Origin: a virus
Direction: 5' to 3' (one strand)
DNA: 64,000 nt
IMG/VR virus record: IMGVR_UViG_3300021181_000006
Span: 96,001-160,000 of that record
Each line of letters starts with the position of its first letter. Within the stretch, counting starts at the first letter, position 1. Positions 1,378-20,780 of the stretch are shown one piece after another. Both the position numbers and the translations under genes were made by a program. The notes below the pieces were generated by a model. It was given only the letters and a program-made list of their open reading frames with translations, was not told the origin of the DNA and searched no databases.

Positions 1378-1455
1378 CAGTCCGTAGCTCAGCTTAGTTA
1401 GAGCACTTGGTTTGGAACCAAGGGGTCAAAAGTGCGAATCTTTTCGGACTGACCA
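1378..1455 (+). tRNA. tRNA-Pro(UGG), A18/G55 variant
   Basis: cagtccg/cggactg acceptor, loop ttTGGaa, T-loop tgcgaat, CCA. Confidence 0.9.
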
Positions 1456-1582
1456 TTATTATGAACATCCCACTCGTCATAACTTACGCGGAACTCTGCA
1501 TGCGCCTTGATAGTCAGCATCTTGCTGATTTGGATCGTGTAGAGCGTTTATGGCTTGAAATGACATCGGAAGAAGAAGATAT

Positions 1583-1783
1583 ATGCATCAGCATCATGAG
1601 ATCAATCGAGAAGAAATTATCCAAGCGCTTGAAGCTGGATGGACTTTTATTGTCAAATACAATAAATCTGGTTATACTATGTCAGCTACCAAAGAGACAG
1701 AGTCATCCCCTGAAGTGGTTGGGAAGAACGTCGATCTCTTAATGATAGATACTTTAAAATATTTAAATAGATCGGTTATATGA
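1583..1783 (+). CDS. hypothetical protein
   Basis: ALEAGWTF motif shared with the next ORF; stop overlaps next start. Confidence 0.6.
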   Translation: MHQHHEINREEIIQALEAGWTFIVKYNKSGYTMSATKETESSPEVVGKNVDLLMIDTLKYLNRSVI

Positions 1784-2037
1784 TTAATTCTCCGAGAGTC
1801 TGTGGTCTTATTAAGAGTGGTTGGACATTTCATCATTGCATCAAGTGGAATAACTTCAATGAAGCGTATATTCATGCAGTATGGGCTACAAAAGAGATTT
1901 TTAGCACTACTGTCTATGAATCTCTACACTATGACCATCATGCGCTTTCGATGACACTGCATGAGGCTGAGAAGCAAGAGGCGAATGAAGAGACGCGTGT
2001 CTTAGTTACTATTGGCTCTCGTAATGACGAATTGTGA
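1780..2037 (+). CDS. hypothetical protein
   Basis: LIKSGWTF motif. Confidence 0.6.
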   Translation: MINSPRVCGLIKSGWTFHHCIKWNNFNEAYIHAVWATKEIFSTTVYESLHYDHHALSMTLHEAEKQEANEETRVLVTIGSRNDEL

Positions 2038-2040
2038 GTA

Positions 2041-2065
2041 TATTGAACCTAAAAAAGGTTCAATA
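2041..2065. terminator. perfect hairpin, terminator-like
   Basis: tattgaacct-aaaaa-aggttcaata. Confidence 0.5.
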
Positions 2066-2078
2066 TACTCACATATAT

Positions 2079-2152
2079 GACTCGGTACATCAGTCCGGTA
2101 GATGACTTCCCTCCAAAGGAAGCAGGCGGTGGTTCGAATCCATCCTGGGTCG
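2079..2152 (+). tRNA. tRNA-Trp(CCA), no encoded CCA end
   Basis: gactcgg/ctgggtc acceptor, loop ctCCAaa, T-loop ttcgaat. Confidence 0.9.
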
Positions 2153-2430
2153 TTGCATTGGCGTGTAATCCTGGTATAAGTCCTTCGTATCTCCTGCGGT
2201 GCTCGGACAACCGTAATGAAACACTCATAGACGTCGTCCCGTAAGACTAGGAGAGTGTAGGTGGTTCGTAGGTACAGCTAAAAACATAATAAGGTGAACC
2301 CGACTCCATTGGCCATTGGCGTTAGTAGTGAAAGGTGTTCTTATGCACTGCCATAAAAATAAGAGGCGAGCCTTCAGGTCTTATGAAGGGGGTTTGGCAA
2401 CGTTTCCCGTTATAAACGTCTACTTTTTCT
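2153..2430 (+). ncRNA. candidate structured RNA following tRNA-Trp
   Basis: ORF-free; hairpins acactc/gagtgt, ccttca/tgaagg, acgttt/aaacgt. Confidence 0.35.
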
Positions 2431-2522
2431 CACTTTGTGTGTATATGAAATACAAAGTGATCGCTGGTTGAATAATCTACAGCGTGCTGGCGGGTAAGCC
2501 GCACCTATTCAGAAAGGAACCC

Positions 2523-2780
2523 ATGGCAACATATGCGGCTGGTCGTAAATACAACATAGCTCTTTCTATACTATTCTGTGGGCATCAAACACCCATCCAA
2601 TATATCTTTGGCGGATGCGAAACCGATGATATTGCTAATAAAGCAATGCGTGAAGCCTATAAGAAAGCCAAGGCTGATATCGCAAAAGGCGATAAGGCTA
2701 TTGAGCTATCAGACTTTGATACGTTATTGCCAGTAGAGAATATCTGTTATATTAAGATCATTTGTCAGCTTCGTGATTGA
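2523..2780 (+). CDS. hypothetical protein
   Basis: ATG preceded by aaagga SD. Confidence 0.7.
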   Translation: MATYAAGRKYNIALSILFCGHQTPIQYIFGGCETDDIANKAMREAYKKAKADIAKGDKAIELSDFDTLLPVENICYIKIICQLRD

Positions 2781-2815
2781 CATTACAACTTATAAAGTCA
2801 TGATGTCAATCTTAC

Positions 2816-2889
2816 GTGGGTATAGGTCAGTGGTAGATCAACTTCCTTCCAAGTAGAAGACGCGTGTTCGATTCACGCTACCCGCTCCA
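2816..2889 (+). tRNA. tRNA-Gly(UCC), weak anticodon stem
   Basis: gtgggta/tacccgc acceptor, loop ctTCCaa, U73, CCA. Confidence 0.85.
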
Positions 2890-2892
2890 ATT

Positions 2893-3120
2893 ATGATAAT
2901 CGATCATTCAGAAGCGCATGGTATTTTTGCTCCTCTTACTGAGGAGGAAACCATGAGTATTGCATTAAAAATGACTATGAATATTAAATTAACAAATCGT
3001 GAATCATACCACCAGTATGGTAGATATGATACTCCTGATTTTATATTTATACACATACCAGGACCAGCACTTTGTAATGCGAGTGCTATAGCTAAGGTTC
3101 TTATCGATGACTCAGGATGA
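2893..3120 (+). CDS. small motif-bearing protein (LKMTMNIKL)
   Basis: ORF with recurrent motif. Confidence 0.65.
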   Translation: MIIDHSEAHGIFAPLTEEETMSIALKMTMNIKLTNRESYHQYGRYDTPDFIFIHIPGPALCNASAIAKVLIDDSG

Positions 3121-3352
3121 AGAAGACCATATCTTTGCAGCTATACATCTAAAACTAGAGATGGGTATAGCATTAAGTACTGATGAGATCGTGACTCAAT
3201 TCTGTTCCGTCTATTCCGATAACGGTGAACCTCAACCACTTCAGAATTACCTTTATGTCCAAATACAAGACATTAATCGCAAAAAGCGTGGAAGAACATT
3301 CCTCACCCATGATGATGGCAGCGTCACGTGCTTCTCGTCGCCTCAAAGTTGA
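3107..3352 (+). CDS. small motif-bearing protein (LKLEMGIALSTDE)
   Basis: ORF with recurrent motif. Confidence 0.65.
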   Translation: MTQDEEDHIFAAIHLKLEMGIALSTDEIVTQFCSVYSDNGEPQPLQNYLYVQIQDINRKKRGRTFLTHDDGSVTCFSSPQS

Positions 3353-3452
3353 GATGGGTATACCGCTCACATCGGATGAATATGTTGAATATGTTCAAGA
3401 TCTCAGAAAAAATAATATGTTAACTATTAATAATATTCTGGATGCCATCTAG
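3309..3452 (+). CDS. small motif-bearing protein (LKVEMGIPLTSDE)
   Basis: internal ATG of track ORF 3225..3452. Confidence 0.6.
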   Translation: MMMAASRASRRLKVEMGIPLTSDEYVEYVQDLRKNNMLTINNILDAI

Positions 3453-3479
3453 TATATAAACCTATTTTAGGTTAAAATT

Positions 3480-4058
3480 ATGCCAATCATCGTACCAGTT
3501 ACTCCACGCCTAAAAGCATTGGCCGTGAAGCTAGCTCATATCCGTAATGGTCCAAAAGTAGCGGCTGGACTAAGAAATGGATTTTCCTCGCACTGTTATG
3601 GAGCGCTAGGAGAACTGGTATTTAGTGAGGAATTTGGATGCGATATAGACTGGAAATCATATGGTGGACTAGATGGAGATGGTGGTCATCCTGATTGCCA
3701 TCATAACGGTATTCATAAGTCATTTGAGATTAAGTTTTCTACTCATTTAACTAGTCCTGATCTTAAATTTGATCATGTAAATGAGTTCATCGCAGATTAT
3801 GCTGTTTTATTGTCATTAGGCGATATACGAGCAGACAAAGTATATATTATTGGCTATATAGATCGTTTATCATTTTTAAGTAAAACAAATGGTATTAGGA
3901 CACAGCAAAATTATGGTAATAGGCCACCACGAGAAGTAGTTAAATATGGTAAATTGTTTGATATACAAGATATATTAAATATGATCGGATCACAATGGAT
4001 ATTGAGCTGGAAAAGAAAGATACACCTGCAGCGTTTGATAGTACAGGGAATTCTTTAG
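3480..4058 (+). CDS. putative PD-(D/E)XK-type nuclease
   Basis: GALGE...PD...EIK arrangement typical of the restriction-endonuclease-like fold; AT-rich. Confidence 0.5.
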   Translation: MPIIVPVTPRLKALAVKLAHIRNGPKVAAGLRNGFSSHCYGALGELVFSEEFGCDIDWKSYGGLDGDGGHPDCHHNGIHKSFEIKFSTHLTSPDLKFDHVNEFIADYAVLLSLGDIRADKVYIIGYIDRLSFLSKTNGIRTQQNYGNRPPREVVKYGKLFDIQDILNMIGSQWILSWKRKIHLQRLIVQGIL

Positions 4059-4273
4059 ATGACTATGCATATGGCAGTACTTTTGATCGTGTCGTACATG
4101 ATCTCGCTAAATGCCAAGAATATGAACGAGCTAAACCACTCAAGCACGATCTCGGAATATGGACTATCTATGATGAAATGTGGTTAACCATATATCGTAA
4201 TCGTCAATTAGAGGCCATGGCACACTATAGTCTCTATTCCTTAGCTCAAGAACATGCGTGTTGTGATCCATGA
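3995..4273 (+). CDS. small motif-bearing protein (LKHDLGIW)
   Basis: ORF with recurrent motif. Confidence 0.65.
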   Translation: MDIELEKKDTPAAFDSTGNSLDDYAYGSTFDRVVHDLAKCQEYERAKPLKHDLGIWTIYDEMWLTIYRNRQLEAMAHYSLYSLAQEHACCDP

Positions 4274-4494
4274 CACCAGAAGAAAAACAATTACGTATAG
4301 ATCTTGGGCTTTGGACAGTATGGGATGCTTCCGAGGATAAGGTTACACAAGATATCAATCGTGAGATAGATAAACTATTTTTACATGAACTGGGGACGAT
4401 GATTTATGATCAATCTCTACGAGAGCGAAAAACAGCTCCGCAAAGAACTCGGCCTGTACGGAATAAAAGACATCATAGAGGAAATACTCAATGA
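4270..4494 (+). CDS. small motif-bearing protein (EKQLRIDLGLW)
   Basis: ATGA coupling on both sides. Confidence 0.65.
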   Translation: MTPEEKQLRIDLGLWTVWDASEDKVTQDINREIDKLFLHELGTMIYDQSLRERKTAPQRTRPVRNKRHHRGNTQ

Positions 4495-4642
4495 GCAAGC
4501 AAGTTATCGTTATGCGCAAGGATCTCAACATGCGCAAAGGCAAGCTTGTGGCCCAAGGGTCACACGCAACCATGAAGGATTTACTATCCAAATTTCAATC
4601 CCTAGACCAATCGATCATATCGAGATTAAACTTCTTATTTAG
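4406..4642 (+). CDS. overlapped motif-bearing ORF (EKQLRKELGLY)
   Basis: entirely overlapped by its neighbours in other frames but carries the motif. Confidence 0.4.
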   Translation: MINLYESEKQLRKELGLYGIKDIIEEILNEQASYRYAQGSQHAQRQACGPRVTRNHEGFTIQISIPRPIDHIEIKLLI

Positions 4643-4898
4643 ACCCCGTAGTATCTTCAGCGAAGATGAAAAGAAATACTACTTTGGTACCTTTAAAAAG
4701 ATTTGTGTCTATGTGCAGTCTGAGCAGCAGCTCGATGCTGTACATGAATTGGCTCTTAAGAAGGGACTCGTTAGCCATTTGATCATCGATAGTGGCCTCA
4801 CTGAGTTTAAGAATGTAGCTACAAAGACCTGTTGCTGTATTGGGCCAGATGATGAAGATTTAATCGATTTCATTACTGGTGATCTACCATTGCTATGA
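4491..4898 (+). CDS. pth2: peptidyl-tRNA hydrolase, PTH2 family
   Basis: KQVIVMRKDLNMRKGKLVAQGSHA...KKICV...IIDSGLTEF...TCCCIGP...ITGDLPLL. Confidence 0.93.
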   Translation: MSKQVIVMRKDLNMRKGKLVAQGSHATMKDLLSKFQSLDQSIISRLNFLFRPRSIFSEDEKKYYFGTFKKICVYVQSEQQLDAVHELALKKGLVSHLIIDSGLTEFKNVATKTCCCIGPDDEDLIDFITGDLPLL

Positions 4899-5083
4899 TA
4901 GTACCTGAACACGATAAAACTGGCTTCATATCTTATGTAGCTGAAGGCATTGATGAAGCGCTCTTTCGCAAAGAAATGGGATTGCCGCTCTACATGCAGG
5001 ACGTTGACATTATGAAGCTGGCTGAGGTCTATAAAGTTCGTGTCAATCGATATCGTTTATTACAAGGAAAACCACTCTTATGA
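4895..5083 (+). CDS. small motif-bearing protein (FRKEMGLPL)
   Basis: tandem array member. Confidence 0.65.
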   Translation: MIVPEHDKTGFISYVAEGIDEALFRKEMGLPLYMQDVDIMKLAEVYKVRVNRYRLLQGKPLL

Positions 5084-5268
5084 GAATGTTCGAAGAACTC
5101 AACTGGTCACCAGAAGAGATAGAAATGATTCTCCATAGAGGTGAACTGAAGGCTGATCTCGGTTTAGAGTTATCTCAGATCGAAGCAGGTATGATGAACT
5201 GGAGACATCGCGTGTACTTAGAACAGTTACGTGAAGCTGATAGACAGGCTCCGAAGCATTATGATTGA
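5080..5268 (+). CDS. small motif-bearing protein (LKADLGLEL)
   Basis: tandem array member. Confidence 0.65.
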   Translation: MRMFEELNWSPEEIEMILHRGELKADLGLELSQIEAGMMNWRHRVYLEQLREADRQAPKHYD

Positions 5269-5455
5269 CGAGATCTATGTAAAACAGCTGATGAATATAC
5301 CATTATCATACAATGAAAAAAAAGAGTTATTTGTATATGAGAAGATGCTCCCGCTCAGGCGATATGATCGGCGATATGATCCATTAGGATTCCTGGATGC
5401 AAATCAGGTATCCTATTATGGGTGGCTCTTTGATATGTATAGGAACGAAGCATGA
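5261..5455 (+). CDS. small motif-bearing protein (VKQLMNIPLSYNE)
   Basis: tandem array member; ATG at 5261. Confidence 0.65.
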   Translation: MIDEIYVKQLMNIPLSYNEKKELFVYEKMLPLRRYDRRYDPLGFLDANQVSYYGWLFDMYRNEA

Positions 5456-5715
5456 TAGATCGTATTGAGTTGAAGAGAATGCTTCGGGTACGGCTCGATG
5501 ATGAAGAAGCTTCATTTATTATGAATCAATCGAAGAATATCCTCGGATGGATTAACCAATATAATATGGGCAGCCACATGATAGAAGGCGAAGAATGGGC
5601 AATACATATGATATCACATGTATTTACAGAAAATCTCACATGTCATGTCAGCGCTCCTTGGTGGTATAGAGAAGTTAATAAGGTACTAGGTTATGATCGA
5701 ATCCATAAAACTTAA
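5452..5715 (+). CDS. small motif-bearing protein (LKRMLRVRLDDEE)
   Basis: tandem array member. Confidence 0.65.
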   Translation: MIDRIELKRMLRVRLDDEEASFIMNQSKNILGWINQYNMGSHMIEGEEWAIHMISHVFTENLTCHVSAPWWYREVNKVLGYDRIHKT

Positions 5716-5944
5716 GAAACAGATGGGGATTAAACTCTCCTATGATGAAGCCCATTTTATACTACAAAAGTCTATCGATATACGTAAAGACCTGATTAGT
5801 AGATGCGGTAATGATCTAGTCCATAAAGAAAAAATTATGGGTATATATATTAATCATATGATGGATGTATTTCCAATGCGTGACGTAGGCCAAGCTCCTG
5901 TGACTCAGTGGATGTATAGAGTTCTAGATAGACTTGGTATATGA
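5693..5944 (+). CDS. small motif-bearing protein (LKKQMGIKLSYDE)
   Basis: tandem array member. Confidence 0.65.
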   Translation: MIESIKLKKQMGIKLSYDEAHFILQKSIDIRKDLISRCGNDLVHKEKIMGIYINHMMDVFPMRDVGQAPVTQWMYRVLDRLGI

Positions 5945-5956
5945 ACTGTAAACGAA

Positions 5957-6163
5957 GTGATGGAAATAAGAATGGAAGAAAAACGTGTGGGACAAAATAT
6001 ATACGAAGAGTCTATTAGACTCAAACAAATCATGAATATACCACTGGAAGCTGATGAGGTACTCCATATGTGTTATCGTGGTCTCGGATCGAAGCCATTA
6101 ACATCAGAATCTAGGCGCTCCCTGATGAACAATGTGAAAAAGTATGGACATAAATACCATTAA
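5957..6163 (+). CDS. small motif-bearing protein (LKQIMNIPLEADE)
   Basis: tandem array member. Confidence 0.65.
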   Translation: MMEIRMEEKRVGQNIYEESIRLKQIMNIPLEADEVLHMCYRGLGSKPLTSESRRSLMNNVKKYGHKYH

Positions 6164-6350
6164 CATGAAACGTCAGTTACATATTGATCTTGATATCAAT
6201 GAAACCATTTGTCTTATGCAGTCTATCAACACTGATCCGCGCATCATAGCATTTTTAGAAAGAGCCCGTGACAAATACTCAAAAACAGAGCCTAGCGATC
6301 AAGAAGCTCATGAATATCCCAGTCCATCTCCTGGATATACTGGAAGCTGA
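6144..6350 (+). CDS. small motif-bearing protein (MKRQLHIDLDINE)
   Basis: tandem array member. Confidence 0.6.
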   Translation: MDINTINMKRQLHIDLDINETICLMQSINTDPRIIAFLERARDKYSKTEPSDQEAHEYPSPSPGYTGS

Positions 6351-6474
6351 TGATACTATTGAGAAAATTATAGCAGAAGCAGATAGACATGGAATCGAAT
6401 GCCGAAGGCGTGTACTTACACCTACCATCCATACAGATGAAGGAGCATCTAGGCATTCCTCTCACTCTGGATGA
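6268..6474 (+). CDS. small motif-bearing protein (IKKLMNIPV)
   Basis: tandem array member; long overlaps with neighbours. Confidence 0.55.
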   Translation: MTNTQKQSLAIKKLMNIPVHLLDILEADDTIEKIIAEADRHGIECRRRVLTPTIHTDEGASRHSSHSG

Positions 6475-6577
6475 ATGGTCTTTATTAAGGCATAATTCGC
6501 TTGTAAAAGATCTCATCATCAAGTACGCTCCTGATGAGATCTTAAATATTGATGATATATATTGGGGGAATACGTAG
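6389..6577 (+). CDS. small motif-bearing protein (MKEHLGIPLTLDE)
   Basis: tandem array member. Confidence 0.6.
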   Translation: MESNAEGVYLHLPSIQMKEHLGIPLTLDEWSLLRHNSLVKDLIIKYAPDEILNIDDIYWGNT

Positions 6578-6654
6578 TCACCTTTAGCTCAGTTGGTTAG
6601 AGCAATGCCCTGATAAGGCATAGGTCCCTAGTTCGAGTCTAGGAAGGTGAACCA
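6578..6654 (+). tRNA. tRNA-Ile(GAU)
   Basis: tcacctt/aaggtga, loop ctGATaa, CCA. Confidence 0.95.
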
Positions 6655-6657
6655 TAT

Positions 6658-6734
6658 GGGCCTGTAGCTTAATTGGCTAAAGCGTCTGCCTTGCACGCAG
6701 AAGAGTTTCGGTTCGATTCCGAACAGGTCCACCA
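6658..6734 (+). tRNA. tRNA-Ala(UGC)
   Basis: gggcctg/caggtcc with G3.U70, loop ctTGCac, CCA. Confidence 0.95.
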
Positions 6735-6860
6735 TAGAAATGATTTATGCAGTTAATCACAAAACTTGCCTGGAGCCCAACGTCTATAACGTTGAGCGTG
6801 GCAGTTATCTTAGTCATTATCCTCATTAAGTTAGATCAAAGTAGATAAGACTAAACCCAC

Positions 6861-7145
6861 TCAAGGAGTGGGTTTAGTCTTTATAAAGGCGATTAACTCG
6901 TCTATCTTTTTATTTAGCTTAACGTATTCTTCAGAATGCTCATTCTCTATCGATTCGATAGCGGTCTGAGTATTCCCTAATGCAAGTTTAAAGCGTTCAT
7001 TCTCTTCACTAATCTCATCGCCACGTTTAATAATTGCGTCATTAAGCTTCTTTATTTTCTTCAGGTCGCTTTGAGCGGCATGCAGAGAATCAACCAGCTC
7101 CTTTTTGGAGACAGACGGTTTACGTTTGGACTTAGCTTTGACCAT
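6861..7145 (-). CDS. coiled-coil hypothetical protein
   Basis: GGAGGG SD before MVKAKSK; heptad-like K/E-rich sequence. Confidence 0.75.
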   Translation of the reverse strand: MVKAKSKRKPSVSKKELVDSLHAAQSDLKKIKKLNDAIIKRGDEISEENERFKLALGNTQTAIESIENEHSEEYVKLNKKIDELIAFIKTKPTP

Positions 7146-8179
7146 TATTCCCTCCAGCTGACCCACTTCACTTTCTCAGAGACTGACTGTTGCGACTCAA
7201 GTTTAATGGGCATCCAGTAATTAATGCCGATCTCACGATGCGTCGTCCACAGTGCCTGCTGAGGAAGCTCGAAGTCAAAGTTGTTATCAGCAGCATACTC
7301 ATCATAGCCCTTAATGGAACCATTAACTATGATGCCTTTAAATTGCGCTAATTGATGCCAATGGCCCATTAACATGAAATCATAGCTTTGGTTGACAGCC
7401 GTCTGACGCTTACGCTTCTTGAAATCACCAGTCATGAGAGGTGATAGTAAGCCAGCGATACCTCCACCTCCACGGAACTGATTGCCATGGGTCAGCAGGT
7501 ACCGCGTACCATAGATATTATACTGACAGTCGGTTGACTCGCTGACCTTGAAGACCACGCGCTTGTCTCCTTCGTAGATAGTCTCCAACATGGTATAGAT
7601 AAGCCAGTCATAGTTCTTGAAAACGTAGTTTTTCGACTCGGGTTTAAATGTAGTACGACCATGGTTACCAACGACACATGGTATAAAGAGTCTAGGAAAG
7701 TGCTTCAGGAGTTCATCGATAGCCCACTTGATCTTCCCTACCAGTTCCTTGCACGACTTCAGAGCCGGGTCAGTATTGGTGGCGGTGAGTTCATGGTGGA
7801 TCTCTCCAGAGATCATGTCGCCACCAAGAGCGAGCACGAGGCCATCATACTTCGGGTTCACCATATGCTTGGTCAGCATGAGAATCGTCTTCTCAACGAG
7901 ACGCTGCAGACGGCGGTTAAAAATTTCTTTGTTGAAGGCATTCACATGCCCGATAGCGGTTGGATTTACGACTTCAGAGTAATGCCAATCTGACCAAAAA
8001 GCTGTAGGAATCCCTGGTGAATTGATGTTACTAGGGGTCTTGGTAGTCCACTCAGGTGTCACGATATTGGCCGATGATAGGCCGAAGATTTTCTCACGGA
8101 TATAGTCAGTCTCTAGGTTATTCTCTTTCGCATCTTTCAGTTCGGATTTCAATGCCTTGACCTGTTCTTTAAGATCCAT
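7145..8179 (-). CDS. calcineurin-like metallophosphoesterase
   Basis: SDWH...GGDM...GNHG...THG...GHWH motifs; AAGGA SD before MDLKEQ. Confidence 0.88.
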   Translation of the reverse strand: MDLKEQVKALKSELKDAKENNLETDYIREKIFGLSSANIVTPEWTTKTPSNINSPGIPTAFWSDWHYSEVVNPTAIGHVNAFNKEIFNRRLQRLVEKTILMLTKHMVNPKYDGLVLALGGDMISGEIHHELTATNTDPALKSCKELVGKIKWAIDELLKHFPRLFIPCVVGNHGRTTFKPESKNYVFKNYDWLIYTMLETIYEGDKRVVFKVSESTDCQYNIYGTRYLLTHGNQFRGGGGIAGLLSPLMTGDFKKRKRQTAVNQSYDFMLMGHWHQLAQFKGIIVNGSIKGYDEYAADNNFDFELPQQALWTTHREIGINYWMPIKLESQQSVSEKVKWVSWRE

Positions 8180-8288
8180 CTTGCGTATCCTTTTTTCTTG
8201 GGTATGAGTGGGGCAATGCCACGCCACTCGATTATCCCAAAGGATACTGCCCAGAGTGGTGGTCTGCAAGTAGAATCTCGATATACAT

Positions 8289-8365
8289 GCCCGGCTAGCT
8301 CAATTGGCTAGAGCGCTTGCTTTACATGCAAGAGGTTTCAGGATCGTCCCCTGAGCTGGGTACCA
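8289..8365 (+). tRNA. tRNA-Val(UAC), A54/U58 variant
   Basis: gcccggc/gctgggt, loop ttTACat, T-loop atcgtcc, CCA. Confidence 0.9.
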
Positions 8366-8407
8366 TTTTCGGTATAAGATCAGTACACCAAACCAAGGAA
8401 ACATCCC

Positions 8408-9476: not shown

Positions 9477-9527
9477 TCAGTTAAATATACTACTTGAAAC
9501 GTATAGTATACCTCATAATATCATTAT

Positions 9528-10109: not shown

Positions 10110-10242
10110 GGCGACGGTGATGGAATAGGCAAACATAATCTGGTGAAACGCACAGTTGCCTGGTCTTAGTACACTAGGAGGCGTGATCCAGATGAGGATG
10201 GTACTCATCTCCTGTCAGTTCGAGTCTGACCTGTCGCCTCCA
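10110..10242 (+). ncRNA. tRNA-like RNA, 8-bp acceptor/5-bp T stem, expanded anticodon arm
   Basis: ggcgacgg/ctgtcgcc, Leu-type D arm, atctgg/ccagat enclosing 44 nt, gtcag-ttcgagt-ctgac, U73, CCA. Confidence 0.7.
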
Positions 10243-10255: not shown

Positions 10256-10324
10256 TGTGCATTAGCTCAGCGTAGAGCACTCGCCTCGTAAGCGATAGGT
10301 CGCAGTGTGATACTGCATGTACTT
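10256..10324 (+). pseudogene. degenerate tRNA-Thr(CGU)
   Basis: good D and anticodon arms (loop ctCGTaa), T-loop reduced to gtgat, no CCA. Confidence 0.6.
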
Positions 10325-10772: not shown

Positions 10773-10852
10773 GGGCCTGAGGTATGATTGTGGTAGAGTC
10801 ACTCAGCTTATATCTGAGCATCAAGCAGGTTCGACTCCTGCCAGGCCTACCA
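10773..10852 (+). tRNA. tRNA-Ile(UAU)
   Basis: gggcctg/caggcct, ctcag-ctTATat-ctgag, ttcgact, A73, CCA; atypical D region. Confidence 0.8.
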
Positions 10853-10984: not shown

Positions 10985-11059
10985 TCTCCTGTAGTTTAAC
11001 TGATAAAACTAGCGGCTTTGGACCGCTCATTGGTCGTTTGAATCGGCCCGGGAGAACCA
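10985..11059 (+). tRNA. tRNA-Gln(UUG), A19/U56 variant
   Basis: tctcctg/cgggaga, loop ctTTGga, D-loop aactgata, T-loop tttgaat, CCA. Confidence 0.85.
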
Positions 11060-14002: not shown

Positions 14003-14006
14003 AATC

Positions 14007-14393
14007 ATGTCTGATGCTATATGTTTAGAATGTTCTGAATCATTTACTTACAGTGGCTCAGTTAAATATAAATATTGTTCCAATAAATGTCAGCAGTGGT
14101 TCCAAACTAAGAAAAAAATAGAGTCTGGCAATTATACTGCTCCAATGGCTAAGAGATATCTTTTAAAGATACGAGGCATTAAATGTGAAATATGTGGAAT
14201 AACTGAATGGTGCGGACAGCCAGTACCACTAGTATTAGATCATATCAATGGTAATTCTGATAATAATGCATTAGATAATTTAAGATTAGTATGTGGGAAC
14301 TGTGATATGCAATTACCGACATATAAAAGTAAAAATCGTGGCAATGGTCGTCATTCTAGGCGTATACGTTATGAGGCAGGCCAGTCATATTAA
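14007..14393 (+). CDS. free-standing HNH endonuclease
   Basis: CEICG...LVLDHINGNSDNNALDNLRLVCGNCD. Confidence 0.9.
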   Translation: MSDAICLECSESFTYSGSVKYKYCSNKCQQWFQTKKKIESGNYTAPMAKRYLLKIRGIKCEICGITEWCGQPVPLVLDHINGNSDNNALDNLRLVCGNCDMQLPTYKSKNRGNGRHSRRIRYEAGQSY

Positions 14394-14396
14394 CAT

Positions 14397-14472
14397 GCCC
14401 CTAAAGACTTAGATAGCGAAGTTTCGCACTTGTAATGCGAGGAGGTCCGTGCAAGTCGGGCTGGGGGCACCA
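14397..14472 (+). tRNA. tRNA-Thr(UGU), A18/G55 variant
   Basis: gccccta/tgggggc, tcgca-ctTGTaa-tgcga, T-loop tgcaagt, CCA. Confidence 0.88.
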
Positions 14473-14491
14473 TTTATAAATAAGAAGTTCT

Positions 14492-14980
14492 ATGTTACTC
14501 GATGATATTAAAGACTGGTTTAAAGACCGGTATGCACTGCATCATATGATGCGGATTAATGTAGATGAAACATTCCATATTGGTAAGAAACAAATATTGA
14601 CGGTACGTATTACCTATCAGTGGCCTTTATTCGTAGATGAGCATAAGCAATCGGACCATCAATTCATAATACATATGACGCAAAAAGACTGGCATCATCG
14701 TGTTGCGGAGTATGTGTCAGGGATCAAACTGGATCTCATCAACGGAAAACTAGCTATCTACGATCCAAACGGTCATATTCGTTTATCTGGAACTACTGCG
14801 AACAAAATATTTTATTCGCATCAGCAGCCATTAATCTACCAACAACTTGGATGGCAATATTATAAGTTTAGAAATATGCATCGCCTCTGCACACTTGCGC
14901 CAGAAAAGATAGAGTATAAACTCCGTCTCATGCAGATGACTGCTTGGAATCCAGAACCTATCGAGATCTGTTTACACTGA
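14492..14980 (+). CDS. hypothetical protein
   Basis: 162 aa ORF. Confidence 0.7.
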   Translation: MLLDDIKDWFKDRYALHHMMRINVDETFHIGKKQILTVRITYQWPLFVDEHKQSDHQFIIHMTQKDWHHRVAEYVSGIKLDLINGKLAIYDPNGHIRLSGTTANKIFYSHQQPLIYQQLGWQYYKFRNMHRLCTLAPEKIEYKLRLMQMTAWNPEPIEICLH

Positions 14981-15246: not shown

Positions 15247-15316
15247 AAGTTCCGCTTTCAATCATCTATGACCCATAAACTGTTTTAACAACCCATACAG
15301 GGGAGAGGACTATATC

Positions 15317-15847
15317 GTGTTAAACGAATTAATCGTCTACTCTGATGGTGGGTATCATGAAGAGATCATCTTGACTGATAGTACTGAGCGCTTCTTGAAA
15401 AAGACGCGTGGATACTATTATTCTGACATTTATGAAATCTATATGACGTGTGCGCGCATCAAGCGTGACATGGTTGTAGACTTCATAAAACGATGCAAGG
15501 AACATGAGTTTCCCGTCTCTACCCCCCAGAGAAGATTCTTGCAGATTTACTACATTGGCGGTTACCCAGAATATGTTGAGAAAATAGGTCATCCAGGTGA
15601 GTACGAACTTCTTGATATGACAGATATCAATGACGAACTCAGAGACCTGGAGAATAAACTGGCCAATATGGGAATCAAGCACACCTACGTTTCCATGATT
15701 CGGAAAATGAATGGCATTGAAGAAATATGGAATCACAAGTTCCAAGATGAGCGATCTGAAGCAGCTAAGATGTCGAAAGAAGAACTCCAGTACCAACAAC
15801 AACAGTTGCGAGTTTGGAGAAGTGTGGTAAACCAATACAGAAGATAA
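15317..15847 (+). CDS. hypothetical protein
   Basis: GGAGAGGA SD, GTG start. Confidence 0.75.
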   Translation: MLNELIVYSDGGYHEEIILTDSTERFLKKTRGYYYSDIYEIYMTCARIKRDMVVDFIKRCKEHEFPVSTPQRRFLQIYYIGGYPEYVEKIGHPGEYELLDMTDINDELRDLENKLANMGIKHTYVSMIRKMNGIEEIWNHKFQDERSEAAKMSKEELQYQQQQLRVWRSVVNQYRR

Positions 15848-15869
15848 CCGATGAAAATCGGTTATCTTT
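15841..15869 (+). terminator. hairpin/terminator
   Basis: aagataaccgat-gaaa-atcggttatctt. Confidence 0.6.
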
Positions 15870-15932
15870 AGATAAAAGTAATATCTTTATAAAACATGGC
15901 TTTGTGGGGGAATAGGCAGACCCGTCAGACTT

Positions 15933-16679
15933 CGTGCTTGACATGAGCGGCAGACTCATATCATGAAAGATATGAGTCAACTTACTTGTGCCAAGTGTGG
16001 TCAACCTAGGGATAAAGGACGTAGGATATGCCGAAGCTGTTATCTTTCTGAAAAGAAAATAACAGCCAAAGCACGTCATGCAGTCCAGGGTAGATATATG
16101 TATCACTTAGTGTGTAAGGCTTGTAATGCCAAATACACTGTAGCGAGAAAAAGCTCTCAGTTTTGTCCTGTGTGTAGAGATTTAAGGAATGTTAAACCGA
16201 TTCATATTAATGAATATGTTTATAATTCTGAAATGAGTAAAAAAACAGGTCATACTTGGGAGCATAGATGTATAGCTGAATCAGTAGTTGGAAGAAAGCT
16301 TCATACCAATGAAGTAGTCCATCATATGGATCATAATCCTAAAAATAATCAGCTAGAAAATCTCCTCGTCATATCAAGAGTGATGCATATAAAACTACAT
16401 CGTTATCTAGATGATCATAGAGTCATTATGGAGCAATCCATACATGAGAATTTCGAGAATTGCTGGAATAGCCTCATAACTCCTATAACTACAGCATGGT
16501 TGGAAACAACGGGTGCGAAAGTCATAAAAATATGGGAGATTGGCCAATCAGCAGCCGAGCCTCAAACTATACGAGTAGATGAGGAAGGTTCAGAGACTAT
16601 GCACGAAACATCCCACGTGGATGAAGATATAGTCCAGACTACAACAGCCGTGCTGGCTAGCGAAAGCTAGAGTAGTAAG
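15933..16679 (+). mobile_element. group I intron in tRNA-Leu(UAA), after U34
   Basis: 5' exon ends in U, intron ends in G; P aattgctggaa, Q caatcagcagcc, R tcagagacta, S aagatatagtcc. Confidence 0.92.
15963..16670 (+). CDS. intron-encoded HNH homing endonuclease
   Basis: CxxC motifs; EHR.IAE..VGR.L...EVVHHMDHNPKNNQLENL; C-terminus reads through the intron core. Confidence 0.88.
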   Translation: MKDMSQLTCAKCGQPRDKGRRICRSCYLSEKKITAKARHAVQGRYMYHLVCKACNAKYTVARKSSQFCPVCRDLRNVKPIHINEYVYNSEMSKKTGHTWEHRCIAESVVGRKLHTNEVVHHMDHNPKNNQLENLLVISRVMHIKLHRYLDDHRVIMEQSIHENFENCWNSLITPITTAWLETTGAKVIKIWEIGQSAAEPQTIRVDEEGSETMHETSHVDEDIVQTTTAVLASES

Positions 16680-16735
16680 AAAATCTGATGTCCGCAAGGA
16701 CGTGTCGGTTCGAGTCCGACCAGAGCTACCAATAA

Positions 16736-16981
16736 ATGGGTATTATCCTCAGCATCACTCTTGCAGTGATGCTTTTTATCTTAAATATTTTCTTTGCTGA
16801 GTATCTCTCTACGAAACATACCTTGAGAAACTTAAAGCTATACAAACAGCTGAATATAGAAACCATTTACACAACAGATGAGATACGTAAGCTCATCGTG
16901 AAATTCCGATGGATTATGGCAGTCATCATCCTGAATATCTTACTTATCATTACTGGAATGGTATTAGATCTCTATGTCTGA
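16736..16981 (+). CDS. small two-TM membrane protein
   Basis: two hydrophobic segments; YKQLNI motif between them. Confidence 0.65.
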   Translation: MGIILSITLAVMLFILNIFFAEYLSTKHTLRNLKLYKQLNIETIYTTDEIRKLIVKFRWIMAVIILNILLIITGMVLDLYV

Positions 16982-17267
16982 AAAACGCCCACTCATCGAC
17001 TCGGAAGTCGCAACACTTATTATTTGGATATTAGGAGTAATACTGATAGTAGGTATTATATGCGATACATTCTGTTTCTTTCGTAAAAAAAGAGCAGAAC
17101 AGTATAATAATTTGGTACAGGCTATCGCTAACGCTAAAACACCAGAAGAACGCGCTACATTTTCACGAGAATTAGAGATTCTTGATATCGATAAGGCTGC
17201 AAGTGATATCACTGAAGAAGCTCTGCTATTGGATCACGCAATTCAGAAAACAGCTACAAAAGAGTAA
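16974..17267 (+). CDS. single-TM membrane protein
   Basis: hydrophobic N-terminal segment. Confidence 0.65.
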   Translation: MSEKRPLIDSEVATLIIWILGVILIVGIICDTFCFFRKKRAEQYNNLVQAIANAKTPEERATFSRELEILDIDKAASDITEEALLLDHAIQKTATKE

Positions 17268-17269
17268 CT

Positions 17270-17593
17270 ATGAACGTATTCGACATCGGAGTCCTGATTC
17301 GGCAAACCTTTGTCGAATATGATCTTCTTTTAGACTTTAACTTTTATATATCTGATGAATATGCGATGATGTGCTATCCTGAAACAAATAGTTACATGAT
17401 ATTTAGACTCGGTGGCACTCTGCCATGGATGAACCTGCGTCCTTGTGCTTATGGACGTTTACTGCAGTTTGATTTCGACTTTCCTCAGACACTCATGACC
17501 CTTGGCCTCCAGACTGACGAAGTCTATCAATATCTCTTGAGAACTGGCAGGAGTAAACCGATCACCGAACAATACCTTTCAGATTTTTTGTAA
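17270..17593 (+). CDS. hypothetical protein
   Basis: 107 aa ORF. Confidence 0.7.
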   Translation: MNVFDIGVLIRQTFVEYDLLLDFNFYISDEYAMMCYPETNSYMIFRLGGTLPWMNLRPCAYGRLLQFDFDFPQTLMTLGLQTDEVYQYLLRTGRSKPITEQYLSDFL

Positions 17594-17594
17594 G

Positions 17595-17964
17595 TACCTA
17601 GGTAGTAGCATTAAAAGTGTGCATCGTAAGAGTGAGAGTCATGACTTTGTTTGAGCGATAAAGGTGCCTAGAAGATAGGGAACGCCCTCAACCCGCAAGG
17701 GAGTCGCTACAGCCTTCTTTCTGGACTGATATCAGCATGCCATATGCCCCTCACCAGGGCTCAGTATACCTTGCAAGGGACAACGCCTGAACAGCGACAG
17801 TCCAAACTGTGGCAGCAGAAAGAATGACCCAACAGATGATGACTGATATGACGTTATGTTTGTTTATCTTTATGATCTCGTTCAGGACCAGATCCACATA
17901 ATAACGTTATATGAGTAGAGTAAGATAATCGAGACTCTCTTTGGTTTAATAACACACCTAGGTA
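17595..17964 (+). ncRNA. candidate ~370-nt structured ncRNA
   Basis: ORF-free; closing stem tacctaggt/acctaggta, long-range gagagtc/gactctc and ttctttctg/cagaaagaa, GCAA tetraloop hairpin. Confidence 0.55.
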
Positions 17965-18034
17965 TTTATATCATTTTTTAGGATATAAGAGATTTGATAC
18001 GCGTCTGTAGCTCAATGGTAGAGCAGTGGACTTT

Positions 18035-18705
18035 TGTAATGGAAGCTTCATGTAGTAATACATGAATGAACATTTCGCTATATGCGGGAACACCCTCAGA
18101 GCCTGAAGTACCGAAAGGTAACAATCTTCAGGATTGGGCAATCCGCAGGAAACTTATAGACCTTATGATTAGTAATCATATACTCTCATTAAAAGGGGAG
18201 TATTATGCATGCAAAATCAAAAGGATTATTAGGAGAGCTAATGATAGCTAAGGATCTGGTTGAGTTCGGTTTTGAAGTTTTCACCGAATTAGGCGATAAC
18301 TCTAAAGTCGATCTTATTGGTTTATATGACTATAAACCATATAAGTTTCAAGTAAAAGCAGCAACTACCACTCAGCATGGAGTTGTTATGCTTGATTCAA
18401 GAAAATCAGGACCTAACTATCATTTCAGGTACGAAGCAAAACATGCAGATATATTCGCAATATATGTCCTAGATAGGAATATTATTGCTTATGTATCTGC
18501 AGAAATGCTATTATCTGGCATCTCTGTGACATTGAGAATCGATCCGGCTGCAAATAACCAAACAGCAAATGTTAGGTATATTGCAGACTATCGAGATCCT
18601 ATGAGGCTCCTCAGAGACTATACGCGAAACACCCAAACTCTGGGTGATGATATAGTCCAGACTACAACAGCAGCAACGCTGGTTCGTGAAAACGAAAGTA
18701 GTAGG
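18035..18705 (+). mobile_element. group I intron in tRNA-Lys(UUU), after U35
   Basis: P tatgcgggaa, Q caatccgcagg, R tcagagacta, S gatgatatagtcc, terminal G. Confidence 0.9.
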
Positions 18706-18708
18706 TAA
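18205..18708 (+). CDS. intron-encoded PD-(D/E)XK homing endonuclease (I-Ssp6803I-like)
   Basis: KGLLGEL.I..DL...G.EVF.....S.VDLI......KFQVK...DIFAIY. Confidence 0.85.
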   Translation: MHAKSKGLLGELMIAKDLVEFGFEVFTELGDNSKVDLIGLYDYKPYKFQVKAATTTQHGVVMLDSRKSGPNYHFRYEAKHADIFAIYVLDRNIIAYVSAEMLLSGISVTLRIDPAANNQTANVRYIADYRDPMRLLRDYTRNTQTLGDDIVQTTTAATLVRENESSR

Positions 18709-18769
18709 TCCACGGGTTGGCAGTTCAAATCTGCCCAGACGCACCACCCTTATTTCATGAAAGCCATCT

Positions 18770-19093
18770 ATGCCACCTAGAAAACCCATGGGTCTTGGCA
18801 CAATATATACACCTAAGAAAATATCATGGCAAACTATTCTACAACCATTGCTAGATGCACATGAAGCACGCCTTACTGATATAGAGAGAAATCTTGGTCT
18901 TGGTTATCCCTTTACGATAAAACACGAGCATAATGTGATTTTTATCTGTTATAGAGATAGGCTGCACGCTGTGAGGCCTGGACACTCTCCAGACCCAACT
19001 ACGTATTATAGTGAGTCTATTACCTCGTATACGTTGGTCACGGAACAAGGCTTAATGAATAAACATCATGAGTTTACATTACTACCATGGTAA
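18770..19093 (+). CDS. paralog family B member (LTDIERNLGLGYP)
   Basis: shared motif. Confidence 0.7.
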   Translation: MPPRKPMGLGTIYTPKKISWQTILQPLLDAHEARLTDIERNLGLGYPFTIKHEHNVIFICYRDRLHAVRPGHSPDPTTYYSESITSYTLVTEQGLMNKHHEFTLLPW

Positions 19094-19389
19094 ATGGTGG
19101 ACCTATGCTCTATACCTATCAATGGATAGAAATCCATCGACCATTCTTAATGGCTCATATGGCACGTCTTACTGATATAGAAAGACAGCTCGATATTGGA
19201 TTTCCATTCAAGCTTATACATAAGCCATTCGGAAGAATGGAATATAGGCATGAACTCTATAAGAATTACTTTCATATTAAAGGGATTCAGAACTTTATAT
19301 CCTATCATGCTCATGGATCATTCTTATCTGAAGAAGATGGAGATATACTGGATAACATCCGTAAGCAATTTGTAGTCGAGCCATGTTAA
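19087..19389 (+). CDS. paralog family B member (LTDIERQLDIGFP)
   Basis: shared motif. Confidence 0.7.
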   Translation: MVNGGPMLYTYQWIEIHRPFLMAHMARLTDIERQLDIGFPFKLIHKPFGRMEYRHELYKNYFHIKGIQNFISYHAHGSFLSEEDGDILDNIRKQFVVEPC

Positions 19390-19646
19390 ATTGGCATGTC
19401 GTTTTTTCTAATACTCTCAGAGTACATGAAGATGGTCTCACTCCCATGGAGAAACAGCTCAATATTGGATACCCTATACTTATCTCTATGATGAACCCTA
19501 AGAACGGATTGCAATATAAGATGCATCTCTATAAGACCTATTTCATCGAAGATATTCGTCTTCACCAAAAGATTTTCTATACCGATAGCTGTCCTTGGGA
19601 CGGATGGGTGATATCCAGTATACGTGAAAGTATTAGGCTATTATGA
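19383..19646 (+). CDS. paralog family B member (LTPMEKQLNIGYP)
   Basis: shared motif. Confidence 0.7.
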   Translation: MLNWHVVFSNTLRVHEDGLTPMEKQLNIGYPILISMMNPKNGLQYKMHLYKTYFIEDIRLHQKIFYTDSCPWDGWVISSIRESIRLL

Positions 19647-19912
19647 AAATATTGAAAACAATAAGCTTTGGTGAGGCATTAGCGCCTATTATTAATCAAT
19701 ACCGTGATAAACTCACTGATATAGAGCGAGATCTCAATATTCTCTTTCCTATACGTCTAAAAAACGCCTTCATTTATGAAGATCGTATTACTATATTCTA
19801 TGGACCTCAGTCAGATACGGTGATGTTTCATCAAATCATTATGTATGACACTATGGAGGTTGAAGTACATGATGATGAACTTACATTCCAGCTGCGACAG
19901 AAAAGATCATAA
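19643..19912 (+). CDS. paralog family B member (LTDIERDLNILFP)
   Basis: shared motif. Confidence 0.7.
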   Translation: MKILKTISFGEALAPIINQYRDKLTDIERDLNILFPIRLKNAFIYEDRITIFYGPQSDTVMFHQIIMYDTMEVEVHDDELTFQLRQKRS

Positions 19913-20188
19913 ATGGAAAATAGATTGACGTGGGGAGATCTCTTCCATGATGTCATGGAAGAGCGGCTATCGCGGGTGACAGAGATAGAACGGTGTATGA
20001 ATCTTACGTATCCTATTATAGTGAGGCTCCATCATCATATGAAAGTATATCTCTATAAAGATTATTTTACTTCACACTTTCCAGAAGATATTATCTCATA
20101 TCGAGTGTCGTATGCCATTATTCCTCAAATAGATAACGATGATCACTTTCTGGAAGAACTAAAAAAGACACTGACACTCATTACATAA
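19913..20188 (+). CDS. paralog family B member (VTEIERCMNLTYP)
   Basis: shared motif. Confidence 0.7.
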   Translation: MENRLTWGDLFHDVMEERLSRVTEIERCMNLTYPIIVRLHHHMKVYLYKDYFTSHFPEDIISYRVSYAIIPQIDNDDHFLEELKKTLTLIT

Positions 20189-20300
20189 GCAACCCAGTCT
20201 CAGGTGGTTGAACATCCCAGGTTTGGGATACCTTTCGCGTTTAAACTGAAGCCTAAAGAACGTTAAAACAGAGACATGGCTTCGTAATTTCAGGAAACAC

Positions 20301-20693
20301 ATGGAATTCGCTTCTCATATGCTTACTGGTAGTATACAAACTACTGCATTATTATTTGTATGGCGTAGCTATCGTCAGCAACGGAATAAAGTATTAGATG
20401 GAGAGTTAAAGATCGATCTTGGTATTATTAAACCACCTCCTACGGAAGAGACCAAGCACGCAGATAAGACACTTGATGAAGAAATGTCTGATTATCTCGA
20501 CAGTACTCCTATCACAGACCGTATTGACTGGGAGCTACACTTATTCAGAAAAAAGTGGATGAAGCGTGAAAAACTCTTCGCGTTCACTATGTCATTGCTC
20601 TATATCGTTATTAACATCTTTTCTATTTCCTATACGATACATGAACATCAGCCTATACCGCATCATCCGGTAGTGACTCTTCATAAGAAATAA
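20301..20693 (+). CDS. membrane protein (LKIDLGII motif)
   Basis: hydrophobic N- and C-terminal segments; cagga SD. Confidence 0.65.
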   Translation: MEFASHMLTGSIQTTALLFVWRSYRQQRNKVLDGELKIDLGIIKPPPTEETKHADKTLDEEMSDYLDSTPITDRIDWELHLFRKKWMKREKLFAFTMSLLYIVINIFSISYTIHEHQPIPHHPVVTLHKK

Positions 20694-20703
20694 TCTTTAA
20701 AAA

Positions 20704-20780
20704 GCTCCCATGGTGTAATCGGCTAACATACCTGATTTTCAATCAGGTGACTGACGGATCGTACCCGTCTGGGAGTACCA
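20704..20780 (+). tRNA. tRNA-Glu(UUC), A54/U58 variant
   Basis: gctccca/tgggagt, cctga-ttTTCaa-tcagg, T-loop atcgtac, CCA. Confidence 0.9.

Follow-up and report, generated by a model that had tools for sequence, protein, structure and literature searches.

The contacts U54·A58, G18·Ψ55 and G19-C56 are taught as near-invariant features of the tRNA elbow. RNase P, T-box RNAs and the L1 stalk of the ribosome recognise them, as do TrmA, TruB and at least one immune nuclease. In the 184-kb genome of an uncultured soil phage, within the stretch of 64,000 nucleotides analysed here (the window), five tRNA genes have near-universal elbow nucleotides swapped for matched alternatives. Judged from sequence, these genes are probably (we estimate about 0.7) working phage tRNAs with alternative, mutually matched elbow contacts that would preserve the shape of the molecule. 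The proposed contacts are A54·U58 with a nucleotide other than U at position 60 in tRNA-Val and tRNA-Glu, A18·G55 in tRNA-Pro and tRNA-Thr, A19-U56 in tRNA-Gln and, in addition, A8·U14 in tRNA-Thr.

The genes for Pro, Val, Gln and Glu exceed the curated gathering threshold of RF00005 (29 bits) by a margin of 20-34 bits, each covering model positions 1-71, and all four (49-63 bits in Rfam) have a complete cloverleaf, U33, a purine at position 37 and an encoded CCA. The original prediction had listed elbow changes in five tRNAs, and numbering by Infernal and ARAGORN puts every one of them at a partner position (by ARAGORN alone in the case of Thr(UGU)); the A8/U14 swap in Thr(UGU) is an additional change that had been overlooked. 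None of the five has a canonical elbow (U54/A58, U55/G18 and C56/G19), each breaking one pair on both sides. The T-loops of Val(UAC) and Glu(UUC) read AUCGUCC and AUCGUAC (A54, U58 and C60 in both) and their D-loops retain GG. Both share the features of other phage tRNAs with A54/U58, namely G53-C61, D-loop GG, U55, C56, a purine at 57 and a nucleotide other than U at 60, with C60 being a minority state of this class (21%, A60 accounting for 75%, among 57 independent tRNAs). Pro(UGG) combines the T-loop UGCGAAU (G55) with the D-loop AGCUUAGUUA (A18 G19) and retains G19-C56 and U54-A58, while Thr(UGU) combines UGCAAGU (G55) with UAGAUAGCGA (A18 G19) and has no nucleotide 26; both agree with the profile of the A18/G55 class (n = 23), in which C56 and A58 are kept and AG stands in the GG register. 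Gln(UUG), with the T-loop UUUGAAU (U56) and the D-loop AACUGAUAA (G18 A19), belongs by its U56 and its GA in the GG register to the A19-U56 class. In canonical tRNAs whose D-loops are equally long, GG occupies the register in which AG or GA stands here: the D-loops of Pro and Thr(UGU) have 10 nt with AG at offset 5, a canonical register of GG, and that of Gln has 9 nt with GA at offset 4, the commonest canonical register. The minimum-energy fold is the cloverleaf in Pro (z -2.1), Val, Gln (z -2.35) and Glu (z -3.6).

Table 1. Elbow-variant tRNA genes and a related tRNA-like element, with positions in the window.
Feature	Position	Strand	Elbow or distinguishing feature	Support
tRNA-Pro(UGG)	1378..1455	+	A18/G55 replacing G18/U55	RF00005 62.8 bits with alignment; ARAGORN cloverleaf
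tRNA-Val(UAC)	8289..8365	+	A54/U58	RF00005 54.5 bits with alignment; ARAGORN
Thr(CGU)-like element	10256..10324	+	T-loop gapped; outside the five	RF00005 40.8 bits
tRNA-Gln(UUG)	10985..11059	+	A19-U56 Watson-Crick pair replacing G19-C56	RF00005 49.3 bits with alignment; ARAGORN
tRNA-Thr(UGU)	14397..14472	+	A18/G55 plus A8/U14 replacing U8/A14	ARAGORN only, at -ps90
tRNA-Glu(UUC)	20704..20780	+	A54/U58	RF00005 58.8 bits with alignment; ARAGORN

All five variant genes encode an ACCA 3' end, lie in gaps between ORFs and share the strand of the other tRNAs, and each is the only gene of the phage for its anticodon. Their cognate codons are well used (GTA 31%, GAA 58%, CCA 41%). C1-G72 and A73 in Pro(UGG) agree with the E. 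coli proline identity set, as do G1-C72 and C2-G71 in Thr(UGU) with that for threonine. The tRNA-Ala of the same set retains G3·U70, which indicates that the tRNA set is under identity selection. With regard to gene arrangement, an ORF starts no more than 3 nt behind the tRNA 3' end at Asn and Gly only, and ORFs beginning directly after tRNA 3' ends were therefore dropped as a general pattern.

Thr(UGU) is the least certain call of the five. It is overlooked by ARAGORN at default settings and appears at a lowered threshold, and RF00005 matched nothing in a 301-nt stretch at a cut-off as loose as E ≤ 10, so that its numbering is that of the ARAGORN cloverleaf alone. This cloverleaf (-23.6 kcal/mol) lies 3.2 kcal/mol above the minimum-energy fold (-26.8 kcal/mol). 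The gene exactly occupies the gap between the ORFs at 14007-14393 and 14492-14980. Standard finders under-call such genes, which implies that phage tRNA inventories are incomplete. The Thr(CGU)-like element is probably a decayed copy: G55 and U56 occur together in it, its T stem has only 4 bp and its D-loop only 6 nt, U1 and U72 are mismatched, CCA is missing, and it folds no better than shuffled sequences (z -0.17). The window has other aberrant tRNA-like elements: one of 133 nt at 10110-10242, one without a D arm at 33148-33226, and an Ile(UAU) whose D arm is odd.

Among 1,317 other, independent phage tRNAs, A54 and U58 occurred together in 62, A54 alone in 15 and U58 alone in one (Fisher p = 1e-90). 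G55 was accompanied by D-loop AG in 23 of 23 tRNAs and never by GG (p = 5e-31 for G55 versus loss of GG), U56 by GA in 20 of 21 (p = 1e-25 for U56 versus loss of GG) and A8 by U14 in 28 of 33. Half of the pooled loci had been picked through an A54/U58 anchor and, although the anchors were removed, those phages may be atypical. ARAGORN seeds on T-arm similarity, so strongly deviant tRNAs are under-sampled in the pooled set; such a bias would favour single over double changes, and the reverse was seen. Each variant class makes up about 1-4% of the phage tRNAs, and its members are well formed, with 0.76-1.39 stem mismatches as compared to 1.33 in canonical tRNAs and CCA encoded equally often. Position 60 shifts as well, U60 being found in 0 of 57 A54/U58 loops versus 82% of canonical loops. 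The changes are thus compensatory in the statistical sense, and so strict a pattern, with uncompensated intermediates rare, shows, at the level of sequence, that selection maintains the pairs and thereby the fold, as originally proposed. The recurrence and covariation of the alternatives make the five genes look like functional tRNAs of a variant type that has been little described. A19-U56, alone among these swaps, is a textbook isosteric replacement; to our knowledge, no solved structure shows A54·U58 or A18·G55 reproducing the canonical geometry.

The variant classes recur in phages and were not seen in the bacterial tRNAs sampled: none of 97 unique tRNAs from five bacteria was variant, versus 23 of 408 in phage loci (Fisher p = 0.012). 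Matches to a 14-letter T-arm pattern for A54/U58 fell inside tRNAs in 83 of 123 cases in viral contigs and in 2 of 120 in bacterial and archaeal genomes, the remaining 40 and 118, respectively, being chance matches outside tRNAs, which is why the raw match counts are not used as frequencies. In the window about 5 of 17 tRNAs are variant, versus a base rate of 5.6% in other phage loci, with a binomial p of 0.002 that is inflated because the window had been picked for this very feature. Clustering of variants within loci was modest in the variant-anchored set (p = 0.003) and not detected in the canonical-anchored one (p = 0.14), and variants are scattered across many isoacceptors and phages. A 9.9-kb megablast query had no match among phages, the capsid protein had no match in viral contigs, and the neighbouring NT5C-like protein had none in metagenome contigs, its protein matches being only 33-38% identical. 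The sole kin are the distant Salmonella phage Arash and Vibrio phage D69 (capsid identity 32-36%), whose tRNAs are non-orthologous to those of the window at the nucleotide level and show A54/U58 in 1 of 25 (Met) and 0 of 22 tRNAs, respectively. BLAST of the window tRNAs against 1,544 pooled phage tRNAs also returned no close orthologue. In the literature searched, which covered few subscription journals, we found no description of A54/U58, A18/G55 or elbow or T-loop variants in phage tRNAs.

What the swaps would change is the surface of the elbow. Each T-loop class alters exactly one letter of U54-U55-C56, giving AUC, UGC or UUU, with compensation. TrmA and TruB need U54-U55-C56, and A54 cannot be a substrate for m5U54 nor G55 for Ψ55. 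Loss of these letters would preclude m5U54 in Val and Glu and Ψ55 in Pro and Thr, and nucleases that recognise UUC in the T-loop should cut these tRNAs poorly, while aminoacylation, EF-Tu binding and use by the ribosome should continue if the L-shape is preserved. CbCash, a cA4-activated CRISPR-associated Schlafen, cuts tRNA in the T-loop 5' of U55, and single mutations of U54 or U55 abolish cutting; whether phage tRNAs are targets of Cash was left open by its authors (PMC13462974). The changed surface suggested originally therefore holds at the level of sequence, in that U54, U55 or C56 is removed. The two purposes offered for it fared less well. Profile searches of the 184-kb record for TruB_N, tRNA_U5-meth_tr, PolyA_pol (CCA-adding) and RtcB gave no match, so that recognition by phage-encoded processing factors is unsupported. 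Evasion as the reason for the changes is plausible but likewise unsupported here: most tRNAs of this phage keep UUC, and variants occur sporadically across phage loci.

Why the swaps arose can be explained in several ways. The leading candidate, which we place a little short of even odds, is neutral compensated drift in auxiliary, fast-evolving phage tRNAs: an initial harmful change, such as A54 opposite A58, could persist until a second one restores the pair, leaving a state that is equivalent and not advantageous. The plausible intermediate A54/A58 does exist (14 of 1,317), several independent pairs (54/58, 18/55, 19/56, 8/14) swap at similar low rates, and the spread over isoacceptors and phages fits, as does the lack of variants in bacteria, where constraint is stronger. 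Against drift, the variant tRNAs are otherwise undegraded, the loss of U60 in the A54/U58 class implies a defined alternative architecture and not a loose one, and drift by itself gives no reason to expect a lost UUC letter in every T-loop class. That last regularity would fit adaptive escape, in which elbows would be selected for removing the UUC site of host T-loop nucleases (Cash-type Schlafens or T-loop-cutting CDI toxins are candidates) or of TrmA/TruB, so that phage tRNAs would survive while host tRNAs are cut. The strong enrichment in phages over cells, the modest clustering in the variant-anchored set and the dependence of CbCash on U54 and U55 (PMC13462974) agree with escape, and phage tRNAs whose loop substitutions let them evade anticodon nucleases are a precedent (PMC10264068; PMC11555353). 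However, about 12 of the 17-19 or so tRNAs of this phage keep UUC (UUCRA), and these, like all host tRNAs, would still be inactivated by a T-loop nuclease of broad specificity; variants are sporadic in most phage loci and unclustered in the canonical-anchored set; and the A8/U14 swap, which lies outside the T-loop, occurs at a similar rate (2.6%), which suggests that tertiary pairs are prone to swapping in general. We consider escape unlikely. A bolder version ('stealth elbows'), in which the three T-loop/D-loop rewirings evolved repeatedly and spare selected tRNAs from UUC-reading immune nucleases or hide them from TrmA/TruB, strikes us as slightly more doubtful again; if true, this phage would carry all three solutions, escape at the elbow would stand beside that in the anticodon loop, and the question raised by the Cash study as to whether phage tRNAs are targeted would be answered.

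A further reading, which we consider very improbable, sees in at least some of the five genes decaying pseudogenes or tRNA-like elements that serve outside translation, for instance as processing signals, decoys or remnants of integration sites. Clearly aberrant tRNA-like elements do occur in the window and Thr(UGU) has no Rfam tRNA match, but decay would leave uncompensated changes whereas all five are compensated, Pro, Val, Gln and Glu are complete by every feature listed above, and the well-used codon family of each of the five has no other gene in the phage. Whichever origin applies to what we take to be working tRNAs, recurrent and strictly compensated natural alternatives reveal which parts of the elbow are truly required, and their sequences could be used for work on T-loop geometry, for orthogonal tRNA design and for testing whether T-loop-cutting defences select on phage tRNAs.

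With the canonical elbow of bacterial and phage elongator tRNAs the variants share the cloverleaf, the 7-nt T-loop, G53-C61, a purine at 57, the D-loop register, the encoded CCA and the same tRNA cluster, but they replace one or two tertiary pairs and lack the T-Ψ-C sequence. A natural, functional T-loop without U54 is known from eukaryotic initiator tRNA-Met (A54 with A58 and A60; m1A58). It resembles the phage A54/U58 class in the absence of U54 and in A60, which that class favours too; however, the initiator keeps A58, while the phage class has U58 (with C60 in the window) in elongator-type tRNAs of a bacterial virus. Anticodon-loop escape tRNAs (van den Berg et al., 2023, PMC10264068; Azam et al., 2024, PMC11555353) likewise carry substitutions at otherwise conserved loop positions and remain functional phage-encoded tRNAs, but their substitutions lie in the anticodon loop and have been connected with known nucleases (PrrC, PtuAB and others), whereas the elbow variants are linked to no nuclease and each change requires a matching one at its partner position; the eLife paper among the two mentions neither T- nor D-loop. 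CbCash reads exactly the UUC letters that the variant classes alter; it is a host enzyme of a Chloroflexi bacterium and was assayed in E. coli (PMC13462974). The present phage combines three T-loop/D-loop classes with an 8/14 swap; the variants are a minority of its tRNAs, each in a single-copy isoacceptor.

Five tRNAs of the window, specific for Pro(UGG), Val(UAC), Gln(UUG), Thr(UGU) and Glu(UUC), depart from the canonical tertiary contacts between D-loop and T-loop (U54/A58, G18/U55 and G19-C56). The numbering was set by covariance-model alignments for Pro, Val, Gln and Glu. Val(UAC) and Glu(UUC), with A54 and U58, retain U55, C56, G57, the G53-C61 pair and an ordinary GG in the D-loop. Position 18 of Pro(UGG) is A, since the sole guanine beyond position 15 is the one in register to pair with C56, and a comparison with canonical tRNAs of equal D-loop length places the AG and GA dinucleotides where GG is canonically found. 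The elbow changes that the original prediction had described are therefore correct for all five. Thr(UGU) additionally carries a fourth tertiary-pair swap that had gone unnoticed, A8/U14 for U8/A14, and nucleotide 26 is missing.

Positions (in the window) and characteristics of the tRNA genes and associated elements
Feature	Position	Strand	Characteristics
tRNA-Asn(GUU)	52-137	+	86 nt; 48.9 bits; elbow canonical; GCCA encoded
tRNA-Pro(UGG)	1378-1455	+	T-loop UGCGAAU (G55); D-loop AGCUUAGUUA
tRNA-Val(UAC)	8289-8365	+	T-loop AUCGUCC (A54, U58)
tRNA-like element	10110-10242	+	133 nt; acceptor stem 7-8 bp; T arm canonical (GUCAG UUCGAGU CUGAC); variable region long; TCCA end
Thr(CGU)-like element	10256-10324	+	G55, U56; 4-bp T stem; U1.U72 mismatch; CCA absent
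tRNA-Ile(UAU)	10773-10852	+	T-loop canonical; ACCA encoded
tRNA-Gln(UUG)	10985-11059	+	T-loop UUUGAAU (U56); D-loop AACUGAUAA (G18, A19)
tRNA-Thr(UGU)	14397-14472	+	T-loop UGCAAGU (G55); D-loop UAGAUAGCGA (A18, G19)
tRNA-Leu(UAA)	15898-16731	+	747-nt group I intron
HNH endonuclease ORF	15963-16670		235 aa; within tRNA-Leu intron
Group I core	16403-16657		61.6 bits (Rfam)
tRNA-Glu(UUC)	20704-20780	+	T-loop AUCGUAC (A54, U58)
tRNA-like element	33148-33226	+	39.2 bits; variable region long; T arm normal; GCCA encoded

The window covers positions 96,001-160,000 of a single IMG/VR virus record (184,466 bp, 41.9% G+C, 94% complete as estimated by CheckV). A nucleotide search of the phage collection brought up no near relative, and the capsid protein reaches only 32-36% identity to its counterparts in three Vibrio phages (181-188 kb) and in Salmonella phage Arash. 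With default settings ARAGORN identified 13 tRNA genes in the window, all on the + strand and spanning 52-23,306; Thr(CGU), Ile(UAU) and Thr(UGU) were added once its threshold was lowered, and an Rfam search returned 15 tRNA matches and one group I intron. The variable arm of tRNA-Asn(GUU) forms a type II-like stem-loop, which is unusual for asparagine. The gene for tRNA-Leu(UAA), detected by ARAGORN only with introns permitted, is interrupted between U34 and A35, the classic site of the cyanobacterial and plastid tRNA-Leu intron, and the HNH endonuclease ORF crosses the ribozyme core. The D-loop of tRNA-Leu(UAA) is similar to that of the tRNA-like element at 10110, which has an insertion of ∼39 nt in the anticodon loop and is called Phe(GAA) by ARAGORN with introns, its Rfam match (tRNA-Sec) reaching only 20 bits. 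The D arm is essentially missing from the element at 33148 (anticodon loop CUUCUAA; UCU, Arg). The D region is oversized and aberrant in tRNA-Ile(UAU), which at 32 bits lies barely above threshold.

Apart from their elbows the five genes are intact. All have U33, a purine at position 37 and an encoded ACCA terminus, all sit in gaps between + strand ORFs, and each is the single phage gene for its anticodon, the cognate codons making up 31% of Val (GTA), 58% of Glu (GAA) and 41% of Pro (CCA) codons in the phage. The Pro, Val, Gln and Glu tRNAs score 49-63 bits against an Rfam threshold of 29 bits, and their cloverleaf is the minimum-energy structure (z-scores -1.7 to -3.6). Thr(UGU) is the weak member of the five: the Rfam tRNA model did not match it at a cutoff as loose as E<=10, it was missed by default ARAGORN, and its cloverleaf lies 3.2 kcal/mol above the minimum-energy fold. 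Pro carries C1-G72 and A73, and Thr(UGU) carries G1-C72 and C2-G71, which in E. coli are identity elements for those amino acids; a tRNA-Ala from the same cluster retains G3.U70. The Thr(CGU)-like element, located 4 nt upstream of tRNA-Phe and folding no better than its shuffles (z -0.17), is probably a decayed duplicate and was left out of the five.

Since orthologues of the five genes were not found, covariation was tested in an independent set of phage tRNAs. These came from two IMG/VR scans, one anchored on an A54/U58 T-arm pattern and the other on a canonical pattern, which provided 237 loci with 1,536 unique tRNAs (ARAGORN), of which 1,317 were left after exclusion of the anchor tRNAs. 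In these the partners at 54/58, 18/55 and 19/56 co-vary. A54 occurred together with U58 in 62 tRNAs and without it in 15 (mostly A54/A58), while U58 without A54 was seen once (Fisher p = 1e-90). All 23 tRNAs with G55 carried AG in the D-loop and none carried GG, which was present in 1,243 of the 1,294 others (p = 5e-31), and GG was absent from 20 of 21 tRNAs with U56, mostly replaced by GA (p = 1e-25). A8 was accompanied by U14 in 28/33 cases (p = 1e-35). U60, found in 82% of canonical loops, did not occur in any of 57 A54/U58 loops (A 75%, C 21%); Val(UAC) and Glu(UUC) of the window both have C60. ARAGORN relies on resemblance in the T-arm, a bias that would let single changes through more readily than double ones and so opposes the covariation seen. 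Stem mismatches were as few, and CCA was encoded as often, in variant as in canonical phage tRNAs. The pairs are thus maintained by selection, and the earlier reading of selection for fold is supported by their covariation in otherwise intact genes.

Combinations of these changes were also observed in the pooled IMG/VR loci (L040-L276): tRNAs with the A8/U14 swap had G21 in 18/28 cases (∼8% overall) and A54/U58 in 11/28, and four tRNAs combined A54/U58 with A18/G55 (T-loop AGCGU..).

Of 408 non-anchor tRNAs in the less biased sample, that of the canonical-anchored loci, 3.7% were A54/U58, 1.5% G55 and 0.7% U56. When the 14-letter A54/U58 pattern was matched to viral contigs, 83 of 123 hits fell within tRNAs, but only 2 of 120 did so in 185,579 bacterial and archaeal genomes. 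Roughly corrected for base composition, the contrast per base amounts to one to two orders of magnitude, a comparison biased by the requirement for an encoded CCA. All 97 unique tRNAs retrieved from five bacterial genomes had U54, U55, C56, A58 and GG (Fisher p = 0.012 when compared with the base rate in phages). From locus frequencies, pattern scan and bacterial comparison it follows that the variant classes are rare, real and phage-enriched. At ∼5/17 the window has a high share of variants compared with phage loci (p = 0.002), but it was chosen for this feature. The culturable, distantly related Salmonella phage Arash, which infects S. Typhimurium ATCC 14028, encodes a tRNA-Met(CAU) (OQ632216.1, 52,553-52,627, - strand; 7554-7628 of the retrieved locus L038) with the T-loop AUCGUAC, the same as in Glu(UUC) of the window, in a set of 25 tRNAs that is otherwise canonical.

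The variant tRNAs would be expected to fold into a normal L-shape and to work in translation. It follows from their sequence and established enzymology that A54 cannot yield m5U54, nor G55 Psi55, nor U58 m1A58. CbCash, a Schlafen nuclease activated by cA4, targets UUC in the T-loop of tRNAs, which it cleaves on the 5' side of U55, and a single mutation of U54 or U55 blocks it; whether phage tRNAs are targeted was left as an open question by its authors (PMC13462974). Since each of the three T-loop classes alters one letter of UUC, resistance to a T-loop nuclease such as CbCash is a fair prediction.

Evasion of host defences or special processing, both raised in the original prediction, are only weakly favoured as possible causes of the rewired elbows. 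About twelve other tRNAs of the phage keep UUCRA, so that a broad T-loop nuclease would still halt translation. Variants are moreover scattered across phage loci, with modest clustering within loci of the variant-anchored set (p = 0.003) and none in the canonical-anchored set (p = 0.14), the 8/14 swap occurs at a similar rate outside the T-loop, and a plausible intermediate, A54/A58, exists at ∼1%. Together these points agree no less well with compensated replacement in rapidly evolving auxiliary tRNAs than with evasion. The idea of a phage-encoded processing factor found no support, as a profile search of the 184-kb record for enzymes that read or repair the elbow identified none of TruB, TrmA, CCA-adding enzyme and RtcB.

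In vivo selections from T-loop libraries by the Steinberg laboratory in 2003 reportedly recovered U54-A58, G54-A58 and G54-G58 and not A54-U58, and the eukaryotic initiator tRNA carries A54/A58/A60. In the literature searched, mostly outside subscription journals, we found no description of A54/U58, A18/G55 or phage tRNA elbow variants. The closest published concept is that phage tRNAs evade anticodon nucleases through substitutions in the anticodon loop, work that makes no mention of the T- or D-loop (PMC10264068; PMC11555353). The window combines three T-loop/D-loop classes with the 8/14 swap, all in isoacceptors present as single copies, and adds evidence that such variants form a minority of the tRNA set of a phage, and Arash offers a usable laboratory model for an A54/U58 tRNA. 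The five are tRNAs with an alternative, compensated elbow.
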